Below are positions 1,838 to 41,998 of a stretch of 64,000 bases of DNA, one piece after another. The notes under the pieces are model-generated. The model did no database searches. It was given only the letters and a program-made list of their open reading frames with translations, and was not told where the DNA came from. The stretch spans positions 6,246-70,245 of the forward strand of contig OZ219900.1 in assembly GCA_964291635.2 (NCBI GenBank), in the 5' to 3' direction. Every line of letters begins with the position of its first letter. The first letter of the stretch is position 1. This DNA comes from Paracoccaceae bacterium (lineage in GTDB: Bacteria; Pseudomonadota; Alphaproteobacteria; Rhodobacterales; Rhodobacteraceae). The translations under genes were made by a program, and so were the position numbers.

Positions 1838-4800
1838 TCACGTCTTGTCGAACCAGAAGCTCCGACGCTGGAAAGGATACCCCGGCACCGAGATACGTCG
1901 CCGTGCCTCACCTGTGAAGAGGCCCGTGAAGTCGAGCACGTGCCCTGCCTCATACACTTGAGCCACCGATCGAACATGGCCGCCTTCTCCACCGGGACCG
2001 ATCTCCACCAAAGTCATTTCGTCCAGACCCGCGAGCATCGCCGGCGTTCCGGACAATTCCGCACGACGGAATACGCTGGCGCTCCAGGTTGATCTGTCCG
2101 GAGTCGCCCCCGACTGGATCATTCGGCCGGTCGTGCCGTCCAGCAACGGCATCCGGGCAGGTGCGAACGAAAGGTCCTCAAGGAACGAGTCGACGTCTCC
2201 GGGGTCCAAATCACCGCAATCCGCCCCCGTCATCTCTCCCCGCCTCGCCGCGAGAAGCATACCGGCTTCAAGATCGAACACCCCCGCCGCCTGTGCCGCC
2301 GCGATTTCGCCGACCCCGCTGGCACACACCGCGCCGGGCGAGATTCCGAGGCTCGACCACAGCACCGTCACTGCACATTGGAGCGCATAGGCTGCGGCCT
2401 GTACCGGCAAGGGATCGTCCGCAACTTCCGCCTGCCCTGAAATCGCGTCGAGCAGCGATATGCCGCGTTTTTCGCGGAGCGCAGCGTCACAGCGATCAAT
2501 GACTGCCCTCGCCGCCGGCTCGCTTTCGTACAACTCCTGTCCGCGACTTGCCCAATCACCAGCCTCTCCTGCAAAGACGAAAGCCGGTTTTCCCCGCCCT
2601 TGCGGCTTCACGATGCCACCATTGTCGGTGATGCGGGCCAATCCTTCTCTCAGCGTCGGGGCATCCTCGAACACGACACCCGCCCGATGCTCCAGGTGAC
2701 TGCGCCCGATTGCCGCCGTCCACGCCATGTCTGCAAGGTGCGAAGTGCCCGCGTCGTCGTCGGACGAAACGTCTTCCAAGTGTTCGTCGAGCCACCCGAG
2801 ATACAGATCCGCCAATTCCTTGAGTGCGCTTGAAGATTTTCCCGACAGGGGCAGTAGTCGCACGCGGCGCGGCTTGTGCCCGTCATCCGCCAGCTTCATG
2901 TCCTTGAGGAACTCCGGCAGGCGAATCGGTACGCGCTTCGTCGGCCCGACCGGAGATCGATGCGCGCCGTTCCCTGTAGAGTCGTCGCCTATTGCCGAAT
3001 GCCCCTCGACGATCAGGTGTGCGTTTGTTCCCGAAATACCGAATGCGCTGATTCCGGCCGTCGGCTGTCGGCCTGTCGCGGGTGGCCAGGCCGTTTCCTC
3101 TGCCGTGACCCGCACGGGAAGCTCAGCCCACTCGACATGCGGGTTGGGATTGTTGAAATGAAGATGCTTCGGGATCACGCCGTGCCTCATGGAAAGAAGC
3201 ACCTTGATGAGGCCCGCGACACCTGCGGCAGACTCGAGATGACCGATGTTCGTCTTGACGGTGCCGAGCAGGAGCGGACGTTCGGCTTCACGTTCGCGTC
3301 CGTAAACCGTGGCGACCGCACGCACTTCGATCGGATCGCCCAACTCCGACCCTGTGCCATGCACCTCGATGTAATCGAGGTCCCGCGGAGCGATGCCGGC
3401 CTGAGCCAAAGCCTCCTCGTATAGCCGTTCCTGAGCGATTCCGTTCGGGACCGTAAGCGCCGCGGCTGCGCCATTCTGGTTGACTGCCGAACCTTGAACG
3501 ATACCCCAGATACGGTCGCCGTCCTGTTCCGCATCGCTGAGCCGCTTCATGACCACCACGCCACAGCCTTCGCCACGTACGAACCCGTCCGCGTCGGCGT
3601 CGAAGGTCCTGCAAAAACCGGTTCGCGACAACATTCTGTACTCGCGCATGAACCGCATGACCGCAGGGGAAAGAACGATATGCACGCCTCCGGCGAGCGC
3701 CAGATCGACTTCGCGCTGCCTGAGACTCGCAGACGCCTGATGTATGGCCACGAGAGATGCCGCGCAGGTCATGTCGAGCGGTACCGCGGGTCCCATGAGC
3801 CCGAACGAAAACGCAACCCGTCCGATGGCCACGCTGGCGGCAGTGCCGAGATAACTGTCATCCCGGCCCGCGGCCGCAATCAGGTCCCGGTACTCGCTGC
3901 TGCCCAGGCCGGCGAACACCCCCGTGCGGCTGCCCTTGAGAGGTCCGGGATCGATTCCGGCGTCCTCAAGCGCATGCCAGCTCGTCTCGAGCAACATCCT
4001 CTGGCGCGGGTCCATCATTCGCGCCTCGATCGGCTGGATGCCGAAGAATTTCGCGTCAAACCGGTCAAGGCCCTGAAGGAACCCGCCGCGGCGAATCGTG
4101 GCTTCCTCGGCGACCGGATCTCCGACGACGCCGCTCCAGGGGCCGTCATCGCGACGCCCGTCGGTCACGGCGTCAGCGCCTGCCTTGAGCTGACGCCAGT
4201 AACTGGACAGGTCCGGAGCGCCGGGGAAGCGGCACGCCATGCCGACGATCGCGATCCGTTCCTGATCACTCTGCGCTCCGCCTGGCCGTTCCGGCGCCAG
4301 TTCGGCTGGCGGAAATGACTGTGCTTGCGGCACCGGCCACGGGCCGGGCGCCGGTTGCTCCTGCGGGGTCGCTTCGGGGTCGACTTCGCCGAGCTCCCCG
4401 TCAAGATGGCGTGCGAGTGTCTGGATCTCGGGGTAATCGAACACCACAGTGTTCGAAACCTTGCACGTGCCTGCAAACGCGCGATTAAGTCGGTTGCGCA
4501 GTTCCACGGCCATCAGGGAATCCATCCCGAGATCGAAGAATCCGACGTTGGGTGCGGGCGCCGACGGCAGCCGAAGCACCGCCTGCAATTCCTGTTGCAG
4601 GAATGTCACCAGCAAGTCTTCACGCTCACGCGCGTCGGCGGTGGCCAGCCGAACGAGCAGATCTTCGGTGGAAACCCCGGCATCGATGCTGTCCTCGGCG
4701 ACCGGTGAGAGGAGATCCTCGAGAAAGGCGGGGCGGTCTTCGACAGCTTCTTCGAAAACCGACCAGTCCATGGCCATCACGACGGACGTCGTGACGTCCT

Positions 4801-7800
4801 GACGCACGAGTCGGTCAAGCGCCCTTATACCTTGCTGTGGTGTAAACCAGCGTCCGCCGAGGGCCGACCTTTGTCGCTCGATCCGGTCCTTCTGCTCCGC
4901 CGCTTCGCCGATTTCGGACCACGCCCCCCAGGCGATGGCCTGTCCGGGAAGTCCCAGCGACCGACGGTGGCCAGCGAGTTGATCCAGAAAGGCGTTCGCC
5001 GAAGCATGGTTGGCCTGACCCGGATTGCCCATGACACCGACGCGGCTGGAAAACAGGATGAAGAGATCGAGATCGCGGTCTGCCGTCACGCGGTGCAGGT
5101 GCCAAGCTCCGAGGATCTTCGGCCGGAGCACCGTTTCGAATTTTTCCCAGTTCTGGTTGGTGAGCGCACCGTCCGACAGCACGCCGACGCTATGGATGAC
5201 GCCCGCAAGCGGTGGCAGCTCTTTATCCATCCGGGCCAGCATTTCGTCGACCGCTGCCACGTTCGACACGTCCGCGAGTTCGACACGTATGGTCGCGCCC
5301 GCATCTTCGAGCGCGCGAATGGCCTCCTGCGCGGCCTCGTCCGGAGGCCGCCGGCCGTTCAGCACGATCGTGCCGGCCCCCAGGTCTGCAAGCCATTCGG
5401 CCACGGCCAGACCGATGCCACCCAATCCGCCGGTCACAAGATAGGTACGATCCTCCCGCAACCGGCCCGACACCAGCGGCTGCGTAGCGACGACGATCTT
5501 ACCGAGGTGCCGTGCCGAGCGCATGAACCTCAAGGCTGCCCCCGCTTCGGCCAGCGGCCAGCGGCTGTGGACGAGCGGCTTGAGTTCACCCGCCGCGAGC
5601 CGCGCCACGACGTCCCTGAGGACACGCCCCACCCATGCGGGATCGGTCTTCTTCAGGACATCGAGTTCGAGAATGGCATAGGTGACATCCGGTCGTACCG
5701 CCGCCATTTCCTCTTCGCTGAGAATGTCGCGCCTCGCCAGTTCCACGAACCGGCCGTCCTGCGCCAGACAGGACAAACTCGCGTCGATGAAACCCTCACT
5801 CGTCAGGCTATTCAGAACCACGGTCACGCCCGCGCCGTTCGTGGCATCGAGAATCTCCTCGCCGAAACCCGTCTGGCGGCTGTCGAAGACGTGCTTGACG
5901 CCAAGCGACCGCAGATAAGCCTGCTTCGGCGCACTTGCCGTCGCAAAGACTTCCGCTCCGGCGGCCTGCGCCAACCGGATCGCCGCAAGGCCGACACCGC
6001 CGGCGCCTGCGTGAATCAACACGCGGTCACCAGCCTCGAGCCCGGAGAGTTCGTATGAGAGCGCAGCCGATACGTAAGCGCTCGGCACAGTGGCGAGGTC
6101 CGTTCCCGGAATGCCCGGTGGCGCGGGCGCCACCAGTTCCTCGTGCGTGACCATTTCCGCGGCGAACGCCCCAAACCCCAGGCCAACGACGCGATCGCCC
6201 ACTGAGACATTGGTCACTTCCGAACCCACGCCGACGACGTGGCCGCACATCTCCCGCCCCAGATTCCCTTCTTCGATGAAACCGAGCGAGCGGAATACGT
6301 CCCAGAAGTTCAATCCGGCGGCCTCGACCGCGACCCGCACTTCCCGTCCTTCGAGGGGCAGCCCAGGCAGTAGCTTGACGCAGGGCCTTTCGAACACGCC
6401 CGTCGGATCCGGAGTCAGCACCCAGGTCTTTTCCGTCGGCAGGTCCAGTCGTTCCGGACCGTCGCCCGTCCGAACCAGTCGGGCAGCCTGACGGCTCCCC
6501 TGGCGCCAGGCGATGTGGTTTTCCGAATCCGGGTACATCAGTTCATCGACAAGATCGGTCGCGTGCGCCGGGACCGTCGGATCCAGATCGATCATTCGTG
6601 GCATGAGATGCGCCGCTTCACGCGCCACGGCCTTGCCGAACCCCCACAACGCCGCTCCGGCAAGTGCCCCTTGGGTCTCGCGCTCCAATACCTGGGCGCC
6701 CCGGGTAATGAACCACACGCCCTTTTCCGGGATTCGGTCGGAATCGGCCACGCCCTGGACGAGCGCCAGGGCACTCGCTCCCGCATGCTGAATATCCTGT
6801 TCGATATCGCGCGCGGTTGCCTCTCTACCGTGGCCGTCGAGCGCCGCGAGGTGCACGATCCCGTAGAAGGGCGCAGCGCCGGGCAGGTCGTCAAGCAGCG
6901 CCTGCCACGATTCGCGCCGCCGGACATCGGTACTTGCGGCAATCACGCTGTCGGCACCAGATTCCTTCCTGTCTCCCGAGCTGTCACTCACGACCAGGAC
7001 GGTCTGGTTCCGCGCCGCCAGAGCGTTCGCAAGCCCTTCCGCCGTGCAGCCGCTGTCTGCAACGAGAACCCACGTTCCCGGTGCTTCGGACACCTCGTCC
7101 GGGCCCTTTGCCACGATCACTCCGCGATCCGGCATCTCGTCGGGTTGCGATGCATCGAGGCCCAGGATTTCTGCAGCGTCGAACCCTGCATCGTCGAGTG
7201 CACGGCACCAGACGTCGGGACTCGCCAGGGCATGATGCGGCCGGTAATCGTCCGCAAATCGCCACCAGCCGTCGAGCTGTCCGAACGTCAGGTCCATCCA
7301 GCCCTGACCGCGAAGGTTCTCGAGCGCTACCATCTGTCCCGACGGTGCGAGCAGGGTCAGGCAATGAGCGAGAGTCTCGTCGAGATAGCGCGTGGCATGG
7401 AGCACGTTCGACGCGATGATCAGGTCATAGGCATGAGCGTCGAAGCCTTGCGCTACCGGATCCTTCTCTATGTTGAGAGGGCGGTATTCGATGCAGCCTC
7501 CGCCATCCCCGAAGCGCGCCTCGGCCTCTGAAAAGAACCCCGCCGAAATGTCCGTGTACATGTAATCGAAATTGCCTTCGGGAAGCTCCGGCAGAACGGA
7601 AGCGGTTGCCGAGCCTGTGCCCGCCCCGACTTCGATCACCCTGAGACGCCGCCCGGCTGGCAGCCTTGCCACGAGCGCCCGGACAGCATCCCCGAGCAGC
7701 CGGTTGGCAGCAAGCGCGATCGGCGCATTCAGGTACAAATCGCCCGGGGTCGGGTAGCCGCTGCTGAACAGCAGCGTGAGCGGATCCATCCCGCCCCGAA

Positions 7801-10800
7801 GCACCTCGGGCAACGCGGCCCCACAGCGCCGGAACAACCCGATCTCCGTTGCACCGTGCGGATGAAGTTCGGCCAATTCGTCGGCGAACAGTTCCGGATC
7901 AGGCTGAATCTCGTCAGGCAGGGGATCGCCATGCCCGACCTTCACGAGGAAACGGCCGCCGTCCTCCTGCAGCACGCCCGACCGGGCCAGCATCTCCAGC
8001 AACCGGCGGAAGACACGCTTGTGCTCGTCGATGACGCCGAGTTGTTGCCGAAGGTCTTCGGACTCCACGACCTCACCCGAGCCACGCCTCCAACCGAGCT
8101 TCTCGAGCGTCCAGAGTGCGCGGGTACGCGACCATCGCTCAAGATCCGACAAAAGCGCGGATCGATGGGCACGCGCGACACCCCTTTCCTCGAGGTAATC
8201 CGCGAGCGGCATGAAGCTGCGCGCAACAGTCGCAGGTTCCGGCAGAAAATCAGCGGAGGTGATTGCCGGCACGAGGGGGCGCTCGCGCCAGACGACCTCG
8301 TACAATAAGTCGTTCACGCCTTCGATCGCCGAGAAGAGCGCGGCCCGTGTCGCGCGCTTGATCGTGTAACCGTCCAGTCCGCCGAGCAGGGCGCCGTCGG
8401 GATCGTAAATGCGCAATTCTCCGCTCAGGACCTCCGCAGGCCCGCCCTCTTCCGCATTCGGTTCCCCGAAAGCCTCGCTCATGCGTACGTGGCAAAACAC
8501 CCGATCGGGAAGGCGGTCGGACGTCAGCCAAAGACGTTCCCAGCCGAAAGGCAGGTACGTGGTTTCGTCTTCGGCCGAGTCCTGAATCCGTGCTGCAGCC
8601 ACGACCTGGAAACACCCGTCCAGCACAAGCGGATGAATTTCCGCATGGGTTCGGCCGGTCCCTTCCCGCAAGGACACTTCGCCGAGAGCCTCGCCCTGCC
8701 GCGCCCACAGGTTGCCAAGCGTGCGGAAGCTCGCGCCGAGATCGATACCGGTCGTCCCCCTGGCCTGGTACAGGGTCGATGCATCCAAGGAAGACAGTTC
8801 GGACTTCAGGCGCTCAAGATCCGCACGCTGCACGGCGCCTGGCATGTCTGCGCCGGTCGTTATCCTGCACTCGGCGTGCAACATCCAATCCACCTCGTCC
8901 GATCCCTTGCTGAGTATCTGCAAAGAGCCCGGTTCCGTTTCGCCGGGACCGCCGAGAACAAGCTGGATTTTTCGACCTGCCGCTTGGGTTTCGTCGCCAT
9001 GGACCTCCGCGGCGAACACCATTGGGTTATGCAACTGCATGTCTTCGACGACGACCGGCCCGCTGGTGCCGGACAGCGACACCGATGCCGCCATCGTGCC
9101 GTAAAGCGCACCCGGAGCGATGACCCGTTCGAACACGCGATGGTCGTCGAGCCACTCCGGATCCGTAGGGAACAATTCTGTTTCATACGTAACTTCGCCA
9201 CTCGCAGATTCCCTTCGCAGGCCCAGCAGGGGGTGTCCCTCGAGGGTTCGCCTTTGCTTCGGCGCGCGCAACCAATAGCGTTCGCGCTGGAACGGATATC
9301 CGGGCACGGATATGCGGCGACGGGTTTCTCCGGCAAAAAGGCCCTCGAAGCGGATCGGCAGTCCAGACTGATACGCAGCCGCGACTGCTTCGGAAAAACC
9401 GCCCGTACCTGCTGGTGAGGCGGCCGGCGCGGGCTGGATGCTCGACAGCACGACAGGGGCGGGCACCGAATTCGGCCAGGTAGAGGACGCCATGGGGGCC
9501 AACACGGAGCGCGGGCCGATCTCAAGGATCACGTCCACACCGAAATCAGCGAGCGACCTGGCGCCACTGGCGAAGGCGACGGGTTCCCGCGCATGCCGAC
9601 GCCAATAGCCTCCATCCAGCAGTTGGCCATCGCTCACCGCCTGGCCCGTCAGGTTGCTGACGAAGGTCAGTTCAGGCGGTTGGACCGAGACGCGATCGAG
9701 GGAGGCCTGGAGCGCCTCGAGGGCCGGTTCCACGAGCGCGCTGTGGAACGCCCGGGTCGTGTTCAGCCTGCGTACCCGGACACCTTGCAATTCGAGCCGC
9801 GCCGAGAGCGTTTCGACATCCGCGGCGGGACCGCTGACCACCTGGTGCAGCCCGTTGTCCGCCGCGATGTTGACACCAACACCTGCAGATTCCGCGTTTA
9901 CGGCCGTGATTGCAGTCACCACCTGTTCCGGAGGTGCGAACACGGCGGCCATGGCACCAGTTTCTGTTTCCGACAGCAGCGTGCCGCGCGTACAGGCGAA
10001 CCGCATGCCGTCTTCGAGGCTGAACACGCCCGCTGCCTGTGCCGCCGCGATTTCTCCGACACTGTGCCCGAGAACAACATCAGGTTGTATTCCGACACTC
10101 GCCCATTGTGCGGTCAGCGCGCATTCGAGCGTGTAGAGGGCCGGTTGTTCCCAGGCCGTGTTGCCCAGTTGCTCGCCGCTGCTGCACCCGAACATCACAT
10201 CCAGCAGGGATGTGCCGCGCATTTCGAGAAAGACATCTTCGCAGCGGTCGAAGACCGTCCTTGCCACGGGTTCGTGGTCGTACAGGTCGCGACCCATACC
10301 AGCCCACTGGCTTCCCTGGCCAGTATAGGCAAACGCGACGGTGGCCGCTGCGCGGGACGTCGCATCGAGGTCCGTCTTGGCCAGTGTTCCAAGCCGCTCC
10401 CGCAGCTGGCCGACACTGTCGAAGATGAGGCCTGCACGGCAATCGAAATGACACCGCCCAACACTCGCCGTCCACGCCATGTCCGCGAGCAGCGGCGCCG
10501 GCAGCCCGCCTTCGGCCGGAAACTCACCAGCCTGTTCGTCGAGCCATGACAGGTACCGCTTGGCGTATTCGCGCAACGCAGGAACCGATTTACCGGACAG
10601 CGGGAGCAGCCGAACTCTGCGCTCCTGGCACGTTTGTTCATGCCGCGCCGTATCGAGGGAAACCGTTGGCGGCGGCACGACCACTTCCTGACCCGATCCC
10701 ATGACCCAGGGCCCATCATAAGGAGCAGTATCCGATGCCGGGTATTCCTCGACCACGATGTGAACGTTGGTCCCGGAAATACCGAACGAGTTCACGCCTG

Positions 10801-38392: not shown

Positions 38393-39088
38393 ATGTCCAG
38401 ATCAGTTCGGTATGGTGAAGGCGCCCGGTCCGTATGCGACGAATTGCGTACCAGAATCATCAGCGGGGAATACATTTCCGGCTCTGAGCTTCGAATCCAG
38501 TCCCTGGCGAGAGAATTCAACATTTCGATCGTACCGGTACGTGAAGCACTCCGAACACTCGCGGCGGAAGGATTGGTCAAGATTCGACCGCGGCGCAGCC
38601 CGATCGTTGCGAAACCGAAGCTGACCGAAGTCAAGGACATCTCCGAAATCAGGATTCTGCTGGAACCCATCCTCCTCCAGGCGGCTGTTCCCAACCATAA
38701 CCGGAAAACGCTCGACAGATGCCATGAGGTGCTGAAAGCCGAGGAAGGATTTGAACAGGGATGGCAGAAGGTCGCACTCAATCGCGAGTTTCACCACGCA
38801 CTGCTGCTTCCGTCCGGAAAGGAGCGGTTTCTCAAGATCCTGGATGCACAATACGAGTCGATGTCGCTCCTGGCCAGGACCATGGTCAACGCCGCCATGG
38901 TCAGGTACGATGACTCCCACGGCGAGCATGTGCGCATTCTTGAAGCGGTTGAGCGCCAGGACACCGGGCTTGCCCTCGACTGCCTGAAGGATCACCTGAA
39001 CCGGTCGCACGAGATAATCGATTCCGTGCTTGACCGCCGGGAATTTGCCAGTGCGCCGGTTCCGGGGAACGCCAGCGTTACCGCGTGA
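38393..39088 (+). CDS. GntR-family transcriptional regulator (FCD subfamily)
   Basis: LRIQSLAREFNISIVPVREALRTLAAEGLVKIRPRRSPIV wHTH plus a helical C-domain, 231 aa. Confidence 0.85.
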   Translation: MSRSVRYGEGARSVCDELRTRIISGEYISGSELRIQSLAREFNISIVPVREALRTLAAEGLVKIRPRRSPIVAKPKLTEVKDISEIRILLEPILLQAAVPNHNRKTLDRCHEVLKAEEGFEQGWQKVALNREFHHALLLPSGKERFLKILDAQYESMSLLARTMVNAAMVRYDDSHGEHVRILEAVERQDTGLALDCLKDHLNRSHEIIDSVLDRREFASAPVPGNASVTA

Positions 39089-39218
39089 TCAACAGGTCGA
39101 CTTCACGCGGGCCGGTACGTAACGACACCCGAACGACACGCCCGTGCACACCCGGTGACCCGGTCATCGGTCCGACGTAAACGATTCGGCTTCGACCGGA
39201 CCGCGCCGGACTCGCTGG

Positions 39219-39226
39219 ATTGCCGG
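39219..39226. repeat. left copy of the 8-bp flanking direct repeat ATTGCCGG
   Basis: The identical octamer occurs at 40672-40679, immediately outside the two inverted termini of the TnpB element. Confidence 0.6.
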
Positions 39227-39296
39227 GGGGCTTATATAGATGGGTTGACAGTGCGATTACGCTGCCAGTTTCCGATCGATTTCACCTGTTGCAGGG
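39227..39296. repeat. left terminal inverted repeat of the TnpB element
   Basis: By hand alignment it pairs with the reverse complement of 40603-40671 at about 55 of 70 columns, with one 1-nt gap. The first 23 nt match at 21 positions. Confidence 0.75.
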
Positions 39297-39422
39297 ATCG
39301 GGAAGGCTTGATCCTTACCTTGGATGATTCCTTGACAATTCAGGCAGATCGTGTCGTGATCGCGTGACGGGAAGCCAGCCTTTCCCGTCACCAGACGAAC
39401 CTTGTGCCGAAGGCCAGACCGC

Positions 39423-40642
39423 ATGAGCGAGACCTCCACATACCGCAACATCATCTACCGGCTTCTGCCAGGCTCCAGGGCCAACGCACGGCGCCTGGCC
39501 GGACAGGCGGGCGCCTGCCGCTTCGTCTGGAACACGATACTGGGGCAGCACAATGACGCCCATGAGGAGGCGAAGGCCGACGGGGAGAAACCTCCGTCGG
39601 TTTCGTTCTTCTCGCTCGGCAGGGAGTTCACCGTGCTCCGCAACGAAATCCCGTGGCTTTGCGAATACTCCTTCGCCATCACCCGGTACGTGCTCAAGTA
39701 CCAGGCCGATGCGTGGAAGGCGTTCTTCGGGGGCGAGGCAGGACATCCACGCTTCAAGTCCCGCCACGGGTCGACCCCGTCCTTCACCATTCCCGAAGCC
39801 GTCACCATCAGGGACGACATGATCAATGTCCCGAGGTTGGTCCCATGCGCATCCGGCGGAAGGGCGGCAACCCGTATCCCGAGGGCAAGCCGGTGAAAGC
39901 CGTGATCAGGAAGATCGCCGGCAAGTGGTACGTCACCGTCTGCTACGAGGTCGAGGCTGAGGAGCGTCCCGACACCGGGGTCTTGGCGGGCGTGGACATG
40001 AACGTCCGGCAGGTGGCGGTGGTGGACACGACCGGAGAGGCGGAGATCATCCCCGCGCCCGATACGGGCCGGCTTGATGCGAAGATCGGGCGCAACCAGC
40101 GCCGGCTTGCCCGCCAGCGCAAGGGGTCACGGCGGCGCATGAGAACCAGGCTCAGGCTGCAGAGGCTCCAGCGAAAGCGGGCCAACAGGCGCAAGAACTG
40201 GCAACACCAGGTCAGCCGCCGGATCGCGAACCGGGCGAGCACGGTGATTGTCGAGAAGCTCAACACCCGGGGCATAACCCGCTCGGCCAGGGGCACGCTC
40301 GAGAACCCCGGCAGGAAGGTGAAGGCCAAGTCCGGTCTCAACCGGGAGATACTCAACACCGGCTGACACTCCGTGAAAGAGATGCTCGGTTACAAGTGCT
40401 TGGAACTGAACGAGGTCAACCCTGCATATACCAGCCAGTCGTGCAACGCCTGCGGGTTCACTGATCCGGGAAACCGGAACGACCGGAAGTTCGAATGCGT
40501 GACCTGCGGCCATGCCGATCACGCGGACCTGAATGCGGCCCGCAACATCTTGACCTCGGGGACTGGGGTGTCTGCACGGCGAGGGGCGTTGGCGCTGGCC
40601 AACCCTGTGACCCGTGAAACTGATCGAAAGCTGGCGGCGTGA
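39423..40642 (+). pseudogene. tnpB: tnpB (RNA-guided nuclease family, OrfB_IS605/OrfB_Zn_ribbon), one frameshift and one in-frame stop
   Basis: The N-terminal part MSETSTYRNIIYRLLPG...INVPR runs in the frame of 39402. At about 39834 a 1-nt loss shifts the frame; the expected reading is INVPKVGPMRIRRKGG. The middle part carries RuvC motifs GVDMN and VIVEKLN and ends at TGA 40364-40366, where TnpB proteins have W (ILNTG-W-). The same frame continues as KEMLGYKC...CNACGF...CVTCGHADHADLNAARNI (zinc ribbon plus the third RuvC Asp). Confidence 0.85.
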
Positions 40643-40671
40643 CGCGCCGTCAACCCATCTTTATAAGTCCC
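40603..40671. repeat. right terminal inverted repeat of the TnpB element (overlaps the tnpB 3' end)
   Basis: It covers the last about 13 codons of tnpB (…PVTRETDRKLAA) plus 29 nt downstream. The left copy therefore contains an inverted relic of the same coding end; minus-strand ORF 39257-39454 ends ...GEIDRKLAA. Confidence 0.75.
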
Positions 40672-40679
40672 ATTGCCGG
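40672..40679. repeat. right copy of the 8-bp flanking direct repeat ATTGCCGG
   Basis: See 39219-39226. Confidence 0.6.
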
Positions 40680-40726
40680 TTCGTGTCCTGGTCGCGATAA
40701 TTCCGATTTCCGGTAAGGAAATGGAG

Positions 40727-41998
40727 TCATCCGGCTTCCCCGGACCCGAACAACCCATCCAGTTCAGGGCAGGTCTCCCGGTCCTTCAGGAGCGGGTGAT
40801 CACTCCCTTTCACGATTCCGGTCATTCCATTCCGGTCGAGAACAAGACATAGCAGGGTTTCAGGCTCGGCCCGCCCGAGTAGCACGGGCGAATAGGTCGA
40901 TGCGAGAACCTGGCATTCCCGTGCAGTCGCGAGCAAGTCGTACACGGTTTCCATGGCCGCCGGATGAAGGCCGCGCTCCAGTTCCTCCAGCATGAACAAC
41001 TGGCCTTCGTCCGCTGCATAGGGAATCAGCGTCAAGGCGAGGAATCGAAGCATTCCTTCGGAAGCAGCCCATGACGGGATATCGATTCCCGAACGATGTT
41101 TGACGACCACGTGCGCCTGCCCATCACCAGGTTGCTCGACAACATCGATTCCCAGTATGCCTTCCTGGACCGACCGGACCCGATTCAACCATTCATTGTG
41201 AGCCGCCGGATCCCTTGTCCTGAGACGATCGATCAACCACGGCAAGTTCCGGCCGTCGGCCAGGTATTCCCGGCACCGAAGACCTGGCGGACTCGGCGAA
41301 CGCAGCCGTTCTCCATCGAGACAGATCGATCTGGTGTATCGCTCCAGGAAACGCTGTACGCGTGTCGCGACGGGAAATGAAGCCGGCGCGTCGGGCAAAC
41401 TGCCGAATGTCGAGCGCGATGGACCGTACGAACTGTTGATTATCCATCCCTTGCCGGGCCGCTCGGAGACTTCGGAATAAATCGAATCCGTTCCTGCCGC
41501 CGATTTCCTGAAAACGGTCCTCAAGCCCCGCTTCCTGCCGGCGGAAACAATGGTCTCGACCGATTCGGGCGGCAGCGGGAACAGGGAATCCTGCTTCGAA
41601 CGGCGGGGAAGCGTCGCGCCTGGCAGCAAGACCCCGCGCTCGGCAACGATTCCGGCACCTCGCTCACCCTCCCGGATCGATACCTCGTAACGGAATCTCC
41701 CGTAACCGGCTTCGGCGGGCAGATGATCCGCCGCGTCGTCCGGGACGTCGAATTCGAGGGCAAGCTGAAAACCCGGCTGGCCCGTCCTCCTGCCCCAGAC
41801 GAGATCACGAAAGTCACCGGTCCGTTTCCCGATCGCCGAGGGAAGACCATCCCGAACAAGATCGGAGACAAATGCCACGGCATCAAACAGCGCGCTTTTC
41901 CCGCTGGAATTCGCACCGACCAGAAGGTGGAACCGGTCCAACCTGACATCCACATGACGAAGACATCGATAGTTCAGGGCCTGAAAACGGCGTATCAT
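40727..41998 (-). CDS. AAA_15/AAA_21-type (ABC/SMC-like) ATPase, orphan
   Basis: 423 aa with an N-terminal RFQALNYRCLRHVDVRLDRFHLLVGANSSGKSALFDAV (Walker A), a long insert, then a signature-like SEGMLRFLAL, Walker B LFMLEELERGLHP and a D-loop/H-loop region QVLASTYSPVLL. Confidence 0.8.
   Translation of the reverse strand: MIRRFQALNYRCLRHVDVRLDRFHLLVGANSSGKSALFDAVAFVSDLVRDGLPSAIGKRTGDFRDLVWGRRTGQPGFQLALEFDVPDDAADHLPAEAGYGRFRYEVSIREGERGAGIVAERGVLLPGATLPRRSKQDSLFPLPPESVETIVSAGRKRGLRTVFRKSAAGTDSIYSEVSERPGKGWIINSSYGPSRSTFGSLPDAPASFPVATRVQRFLERYTRSICLDGERLRSPSPPGLRCREYLADGRNLPWLIDRLRTRDPAAHNEWLNRVRSVQEGILGIDVVEQPGDGQAHVVVKHRSGIDIPSWAASEGMLRFLALTLIPYAADEGQLFMLEELERGLHPAAMETVYDLLATARECQVLASTYSPVLLGRAEPETLLCLVLDRNGMTGIVKGSDHPLLKDRETCPELDGLFGSGEAG

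Follow-up and report, generated by a model that had tools for sequence, protein, structure and literature searches.

The window analysed here (64,000 nucleotides of contig OZ219900.1 from a Paracoccaceae bacterium) contains, at positions 39227-40671, an element of 1,445 bp whose sole gene is tnpB, and which is very probably a copy, now decayed, of a non-autonomous transposon of the IS1595 type that carries tnpB as its cargo. A first-pass annotation, made from the sequence of the window alone, had proposed that this cargo is mobilised in the manner of a DDE transposon and not as a single strand, which is borne out by an empty site for the element, by perfect 8-bp target-site duplications (TSDs) around most of the related insertions, and by an IS1595-family transposase that is linked to relatives of the element. 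Since the element contains no transposase, it can only be a non-autonomous derivative of this family. The accompanying claim that tnpB is the only gene is correct as far as content goes, but the gene is interrupted (one base is missing and a stop codon lies in frame, as discussed below), which had been overlooked.

The octamer ATTGCCGG abuts the element on each side (39219-39226 and 40672-40679), at the two positions where it had been noticed before. A position-exact chance match of two flanking octamers has a probability of about 1e-4. The same octamer occurs 14 times in the window (both strands), as against the ~ 2.5 occurrences that we estimate from base composition; most of these appear to lie in unrelated sequence, and the excess appears to be a compositional or codon effect rather than a repeat element. 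Because the octamer is this frequent, the duplication required independent proof. The genes on either side, i.e. a GntR-family regulator (38393-39088) and an AAA ATPase on the minus strand (40727-41998), are also adjacent in five other Paracoccaceae assemblies (L188-L192), where they are 185 bp apart, compared to 1,638 bp in the window. The empty site in these assemblies reads ...CCCCGG ATTGCCGG TTCGTG..., with a single octamer, and the window without the element and one octamer amounts to 2,153 bp, which is the same length as the empty-site region, to which it is 94% identical. This comparison had been set beforehand as the decisive one, and the duplication passes it: the octamer is a true 8-bp TSD, and the element inserted in the intergenic region between the GntR and AAA ATPase genes, duplicating 8 bp (ATTGCCGG).

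The ends of the element (termini GGGGCTTATATAG and GGGACTTATAAAG) are terminal inverted repeats (TIRs) of the extent that had been found by hand. When the right 69 nt (40603-40671, minus strand) are reverse-complemented and aligned with the left 70 nt (39227-39296, plus strand), 55 of 70 columns match, with one gap, and the local alignment score of 63 compares with 13.9 +/- 2.2 (maximum 24) across 500 shuffles. The outermost 23 nt were said to be nearly identical and are so at 21 positions, while a repeat search gives 86% complementarity over the outer 29 nt. In the left TIR, the outer ~ 24 nt (GGGGCTTATATAGATGGGTTGACA) form an IS1595-type terminus, whereas the inner ~ 45 nt are an inverted tnpB 3' end. 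The right TIR ends in ...TTATAAGTCCC; with the tnpB stop codon at 40640-40642, only 29 nt from the right end of the element, this TIR spans the last ~ 13 codons of the gene and the 29 nt that follow, as had been proposed. Similarly, the minus strand of the left end encodes ...EIDRKLAA, which agrees with the DRKLAA reading frame reported earlier for the opposite strand. Each TIR also contains a short palindrome (40632-40652 and 39246-39266), of which the right-end version (GGCGGCG-TGA-CGCGCCGTC) has the tnpB stop codon in its loop and the left-end mirror version is weaker. No sigma-70-like site was found in the left end by a promoter scan.

Further copies, which the first-pass annotation had suggested should be sought, are numerous. 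A scan of one genome per species gave 80 loci, with at least 16 copies in the chromosome of one Paracoccaceae metagenome-assembled genome (MAG; OY759767.1), others in three further Paracoccaceae MAGs, and at least 50 copies in one Rhodothermales MAG (OY760427.1), in which the identity of TnpB is ~ 60%. From copy to copy, the similarity ends everywhere at GGG(G/A)nTTATAT... on the left and at ...ATATAAnTCCC on the right. In the final tally, the flanks of 61 insertions agree at no fewer than 7 of 8 positions; 51 of these insertions have a perfect 8-bp TSD, the sequence of which varies. Among non-cognate flank pairs, agreement at all 8 positions had a frequency of 0.0002 in an earlier count based on the 66 copies for which both ends had been found. 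Most of the copies that apparently lack a TSD are explained by a second element, either a group II intron in five Paracoccaceae copies or an adjacent insertion sequence (IS) in the Rhodothermales copies. Five further loci, looked at one by one, i.e. L185-L187 (TnpB 57-69% identical) and L026 and L027 (61-62%), have the same termini and perfect 8-bp TSDs, and the TnpBs with these ends form one clade of 57-100% identity. The same termini and TSD length thus occur in a family that spans at least two phyla. A BLAST search of 72,556 plasmids with the whole element and its left 74 nt returned only distant TnpB fragments or chance matches, a metagenome (JGI) scan for the TIR core CTTATANAGATGGGTTGAC returned eight matches, all by chance and without tnpB or an IS1595 transposase, and a scan of viral contigs with a TnpB alignment returned one close relative (L177), which has no recognisable ends.

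The identity of the mobilising transposase is indicated by the Rhodothermales copies. At 12 Rhodothermales loci, the tnpB unit is preceded, ~ 470 bp upstream, by another unit with TIRs at its ends. This upstream unit encodes a 318-aa protein (681-1637 in L032) with a DDE_Tnp_IS1595 domain (E = 1e-37) and Zn_ribbon_IS1595. It is bounded by GGGAGTTATATAGCTGACTGCCCACGCG and GGGAGTTATATGGCTGAGTGCCACGCG, the latter being the left-end sequence of the tnpB unit as well. By tblastn, this transposase gene is present, in one orientation or the other, in 19 of 55 Rhodothermales loci. In 10 of the 12 composites with both outer ends, the 8-bp TSD flanks the entire compound of ~ 3.7 kb (from the left end of the IS to the right end of tnpB), so that here the IS and tnpB move as one compound. 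Further end combinations likewise have TSDs of their own (873-4256 in L047, 908-4256 in L073 and 2108-4256 in L050). In the last of these, the compound is flanked by the TSD ATACATTA, and its outer edge is formed by an element of ~ 170 bp (2108-2277) that resembles a miniature inverted-repeat transposable element and has the same TIRs (GGGAGTTATATGGCTGAGTACCCA / GGGAATTATATTGCTGAGTACCCA). In L046, the tnpB unit lies inside the 5' part of a degenerate IS1595-family transposase gene (4257-5119) that is 63% identical to the partner, i.e. the elements are nested.

IS1595-family elements collected through their transposase alone (from alignment A3, viral contigs and three look-ups) served as a control set without TnpB. 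An automatic search gave 47 such elements with GGGAATTATATAC-like TIR starts and perfect 8-bp TSDs, none of which carries tnpB. Their terminal 12 nt (GGGnnTTATATA) and TSD length are common to the window element and the Rhodothermales units. Two IS1595-family transposons with perfect 8-bp TSDs carry cargo other than a transposase: the one in L096 (2408-5616, ~ 3.2 kb) encodes a DNA methylase and an unknown open reading frame (ORF), and the one in L095 (1653-4782, ~ 3.1 kb) encodes a SocA_Panacea-domain protein and others. The IS1595 family reportedly includes members with passenger genes, and the subgroup to which the present ends belong is presumably ISNwi1 (ends 'ggnnatTAT', 8-bp repeats). 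A/T-rich direct repeats of 8 bp have also been published for IS1595-family elements (PMC12561309).

Several observations weigh against assigning the window element to this family. Its movement is deduced from sequence, and the window copy itself may be immobile. Every linked arrangement in Rhodothermales is a compound of two TIR-bounded units, and none is a single element that holds both the transposase and tnpB inside one pair of ends. By tblastn, an IS1595-family transposase is absent from the 64-kb window and from within 3 kb of 25 Paracoccaceae copies, and in the loci, plasmids and metagenomes searched, the Paracoccaceae-type TIR bounds nothing but tnpB units. The omega-RNA, the guide and the target-adjacent motif (TAM) that are discussed below are predictions from sequence. 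Because no partner was found in the Paracoccaceae lineage, mobilisation in trans is deduced there from the homology of the ends.

It could be asked whether the Paracoccaceae copies are moved by an enzyme from a different transposase family that likewise duplicates 8 bp, their IS1595-like ends being convergent or inherited without the partner. This would account for the missing transposase in the window and near the Paracoccaceae copies, and also for a TIR that is unusually long (~ 70 nt) and unlike that of Rhodothermales past the first ~ 12 nt. No IS1595-family IS with the GGGGCTTATATAGATGGGTTGAC ends of the Paracoccaceae type was found in the loci, plasmids and metagenomes searched, nor were IS1595 homologs on the Paracoccaceae chromosome among the matches listed for the Rhodothermales transposase query and for the P0001 and P0009 look-ups. 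Such a mover is nevertheless improbable, given that the terminal 12 nt and the TSD length are those of the Rhodothermales units and of the 47 IS1595-family elements, and that the TnpBs form a single clade with these ends throughout.

Considerably less probable again, and refuted for practical purposes, is an ordinary tnpB-only element of the IS200/IS605 family (IS1341 group), mobilised in single-stranded form by a Y1 TnpA acting in trans, in which the repeats and the octamer would be incidental. The cargo as such would fit, being a typical TnpB with OrfB_IS605 and Cas12f1-like_TNB domains, and most solo TnpBs do fall in IS200/IS605 (PMC10691335). Members of that family, however, have neither TIRs nor a TSD, and they integrate on the 3' side of a fixed tetra- or pentanucleotide (PMC13565253), whereas here the 51 independent insertions with perfect TSDs of variable sequence, the duplication that is visible against the empty site, the one terminus common to both ends and the DDE transposase that is linked to these ends in relatives all point the other way. 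A local accident, i.e. a one-off inverted duplication of the right end beside a chance octamer, immobile as a unit, has hardly any probability left and is refuted, because in spite of the over-represented octamer and an inner left end that truly is an inverted copy of the tnpB 3' end, there are dozens of two-ended copies at different sites, each with its own TSD, as well as an empty site.

A non-autonomous IS1595-type transposon being by far the most probable reading, the question of how its ends arose has different answers in different lineages. In most of them the TIR is 22-24 nt long, compared to ~ 70 nt in Paracoccaceae, and the TIRs of Paracoccaceae and Rhodothermales diverge after the first ~ 12 nt. 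The left end in Paracoccaceae holds an inverted copy of the last ~ 13 tnpB codons and of the 29-nt tail, and therefore an inverted duplication of the right end is true for the lineage of the window. Subfamily-specific changes have hit both Paracoccaceae ends together, and the long TIR is conserved across subfamilies. In Rhodothermales, identity between the tnpB unit and the end of the IS itself reaches 93% over the leftmost 89 nt of the unit, well past the 30-nt TIR, and the left end is one borrowed from this partner IS. On the other side, the Rhodothermales tnpB ORF enters the right TIR, with its TAA stop codon 5 nt from the end (...GTATATAATTCCC; in L043-L046 and others, e.g. 4249-4256 in L046). 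The first-pass annotation had offered a non-autonomous DDE element and an inverted duplication of the right end as alternatives; both hold in part, but the duplication does not extend beyond the Paracoccaceae lineage, since the others have the short TIR or the borrowed left end. As judged from these comparisons, the constant core of the family is tnpB together with a right end that doubles as an IS1595-type terminus, around which left ends have been rebuilt in different ways. In L034 and most other Rhodothermales loci, the terminal motif of the left end (GGGAGTTATATAyCACAGTGCCATG) recurs in direct orientation at ~ 2979-3003, where it covers part of the tnpB start region, including the start codon. 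This internal copy lies ~ 180 bp inward of the true left end and could be an extra transposase-binding site or the remnant of an older end.

An asymmetry of the insertion sites lies just outside the TSD. The base 5' of the left TSD copy (position -1) is a G in 59 of the 61 tnpB-carrying insertions, in several lineages; in the window this is position 39218 (plus strand), and the empty sites L188-L192 likewise have a G ahead of their one octamer. The TSD itself has the palindromic preference H-W-W-N-N-W-W-D, whereas a C at the mirror position (+1) is found in only about a quarter of the tnpB-carrying sites, and an explanation by a palindromic target preference was rejected for that reason. A TSD of 9 bp, or a G that belongs to the element itself, was rejected as well, because the base before the TSD at the right junction is always C while the eight intervening bases vary. 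In the IS1595 elements without TnpB, the preference at the corresponding bases is weak and symmetric (G at -1 in 20 of 47, C at +1 in 20 of 47; G at -1 in 17 of 43 after removal of duplicate loci). A Fisher test on provisional counts (56/58 versus 17/43) gives p ~ 1e-10, with the qualification that these control elements come from other hosts and have transposases that are just 39-55% identical.

In the empty site, the G at -1 lies directly 5' of the sequence that could be matched by a guide transcribed across the right end of the element, i.e. at the place expected of a TAM, whereas in the occupied site the element supplies its terminal C at this place. The G may be part of the TAM of TnpB, with only TAM-adjacent copies being kept after excision; the C that the right end supplies at the TAM position would then give discrimination between self and non-self. 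The alternative is a lineage-specific asymmetry of the transposase. That this clade of TnpB and omega-RNA is a stable IS1595 passenger, whose nuclease has left an imprint on where copies persist, is possible, but at present it can be put forward only tentatively and with more doubt than confidence.

The tnpB gene of the window (39423-40642, plus strand) is a pseudogene, as follows from its ORFs, repair of the frame and Pfam. Loss of one base near 39839 (TTGGGT to TTGGT) shifts the frame, and at 40364-40366 the codon of a conserved Trp is replaced by an in-frame TGA. The window copy is thus decayed, its tnpB being both frameshifted and interrupted by a stop, with the reservation that the deletion could be an assembly error, as it lies in a run of G and some of the relatives come from low-coverage assemblies. 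The repaired product of 406 aa matches OrfB_IS605 (1.8e-19), Cas12f1-like_TNB (3.4e-18) and HTH_OrfB_IS605 (2e-5), and is 95% identical over its full length to an intact 406-aa homolog (P0001). The RuvC residues D192, E278 and D369 and the zinc-finger cysteines C341, C344, C359 and C362 are invariant across 26 homologs (alignment A4), and both sets are kept in the repaired window protein, the window ORF itself being broken.

The 3' coding region of tnpB may have a second function. Its last ~ 180 nt show conservation at the nucleotide level across proteins that are just ~ 60% identical, and the helices predicted there have 96.9% of their cells paired, compared to 32-42% with slid partners (the structure having been predicted on the same alignment), while ten base pairs change on both sides in a compensatory manner. 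This conserved structure fits a putative omega-RNA scaffold at 40497-40616 (plus strand), with helices at 40497-40515, 40553-40569 and 40575-40616. An Rfam scan of 38500-41500 at E <= 1 gave no match, and the single-sequence fold of the tnpB 3' region is not stabler than shuffles (z = 0.59). The right TSD copy (40672-40679) would also open any guide RNA that reads through the right end.

Taken as a mechanism, an IS1595-family transposase encoded elsewhere would, in the lineage of the window, bind the outer ~ 24 bp of both TIRs, cut an A/T-leaning target with an 8-bp stagger and integrate the element, after which the window copy would have decayed through the frameshift and stop in tnpB. In intact copies, a guide transcribed across the right end (i.e. 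covering the TSD and the flank) may let TnpB recognise the empty site, and this recognition may in turn help to keep the element, the G at -1 being the candidate TAM.

Among known systems, DDE families such as IS630, ISL2 and IS1031 make duplications of 2-3 bp or of TA. TnpB has already been placed in DDE transposons by Altae-Tran et al. 2023 (PMC10691335), who describe six DDE-associated TnpB branches, each bounded by inverted terminal repeats, as well as solo TnpBs, some of which share these ends and are presumably mobilised in trans; the families named for these branches are IS630 in that paper and ISL2, IS630 and IS1031 in a 2026 review (PMC13565253). The class of TnpB in inverted-ended DDE transposons having been published, it is not new, and the suggestion of an undescribed bacterial class does not stand. 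The present family is similar to these DDE-1 to DDE-6 TnpBs in that TnpB lies within symmetric inverted ends, in multiple and evidently mobile copies, with the tnpB 3' end no more than 250 bp from the transposon end (29 nt here), and in that the DDE transposase is linked to some members while solo members have its ends (as in the Rhodothermales lineage). It differs from them, as far as the main text of that paper describes them, in its IS1595-family partner and 8-bp TSD, and the one-sided G and the inverted-copy left end are absent from that description. IS1595 is not mentioned in the main text of PMC10691335 or in the TnpB literature searched. Neither the pairing of tnpB with IS1595 and its 8-bp TSD nor the rebuilding of left ends and the G on one side only appears to have been described before.

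With the IS1595 family itself, the element shares the TIR start GGGnnTTATA and the A/T-leaning 8-bp TSD. Members of that family have a DDE_Tnp_IS1595 transposase with an N-terminal zinc ribbon and in some cases cargo (such as the DNA methylase in L096), whereas the window element has no transposase, an RNA-guided nuclease as its cargo, a TIR of ~ 70 nt instead of ~ 20-30 nt, and the one-sided G at -1 in place of a weak, symmetric G...C. The resemblance to the IS1341 group of IS200/IS605 concerns the family of the cargo protein, the non-autonomy and the putative omega-RNA region over the tnpB 3' end. In IS200/IS605 elements, however, the ends are asymmetric and carry subterminal hairpins, a TSD is lacking and the fixed target motif also serves as the TAM, in contrast to the TIRs, the variable 8-bp TSD and the single fixed flanking base (G at -1) seen here; as it fails on both ends and TSD, the element should not be filed under that family in spite of its cargo, and the same applies to the annotation of such elements in general. 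In eukaryotes, Fanzor genes are carried in transposons with TIRs and TSDs of the DDE type (Bao and Jurka 2013, PMC3627910; Yoon et al. 2023, PMC10711439). Like these, the present family combines a TnpB-type nuclease with a cut-and-paste transposon, a predicted guide RNA region that reaches the transposon end and a TSD between scaffold and flank, but it is bacterial, belongs with another transposase superfamily and carries a canonical, compact TnpB of 406 aa.

Several copies have themselves received other elements. In the Paracoccaceae MAG OY759767.1, at least five copies from separate chromosomal sites carry a group II intron that begins two bases into their left TIR, with the TSD present once the intron is discounted. 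The intron is antisense to tnpB and occupies about 780-2802 in each of L002-L004, L007 and L008, with a partial copy at 1654-2802 in L005. The block of ~ 2.03 kb is 100% identical in most pairwise comparisons and encodes a 446-aa reverse transcriptase/maturase (RVT_1 and GIIM). This looks like retrohoming into the terminus of a transposon, which would split the TIR. An IS of the IS4/IS5 type (DDE_Tnp_1) lies between the left TIR and tnpB, in the left part of the tnpB unit or compound, in L091 (7303-9118) and L184 (2386-3768), which is further nesting in IS-rich genomes. Finally, a large Cas9-like gene (Csx12, Cas9_C_2 by Pfam) is found 2.5 kb downstream of the tnpB unit in L185, on a contig of 3.2 Mb (7735-9221, where it runs off the locus); this neighbour is probably coincidental.

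Cas12 descends from TnpB. The role that is established for TnpB, in which the transposon is retained because the empty donor site is cut, was determined in IS200/IS605 elements, whose excision leaves no scar. To our knowledge, the published prokaryotic examples of TnpB in DDE transposons are few and uncharacterised. The interest of the present case therefore lies mainly in the picture at the level of the family and in the TAM-like base, and not in the dead copy of the window. One genome alone holds at least 50 copies, the ends are clear, the partner family is identified, compound and solo forms occur side by side and empty sites exist, so that the family is a tractable case in which to study the role of TnpB in a DDE transposon that leaves TIRs and TSDs; its sharp, one-sided target base amounts to a specific and testable prediction of a TAM. 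It also illustrates how left ends can be re-invented around a conserved core of tnpB and right end, either borrowed from an IS or made by inverted duplication. If the imprint of the nuclease on these insertion sites is real, copies would be retained, or copied back, only at TAM-adjacent sites, which would be a first hint of what use an RNA-guided nuclease has for a bacterial cut-and-paste transposon, and would make the family a prokaryotic counterpart of Fanzor in TIR transposons.

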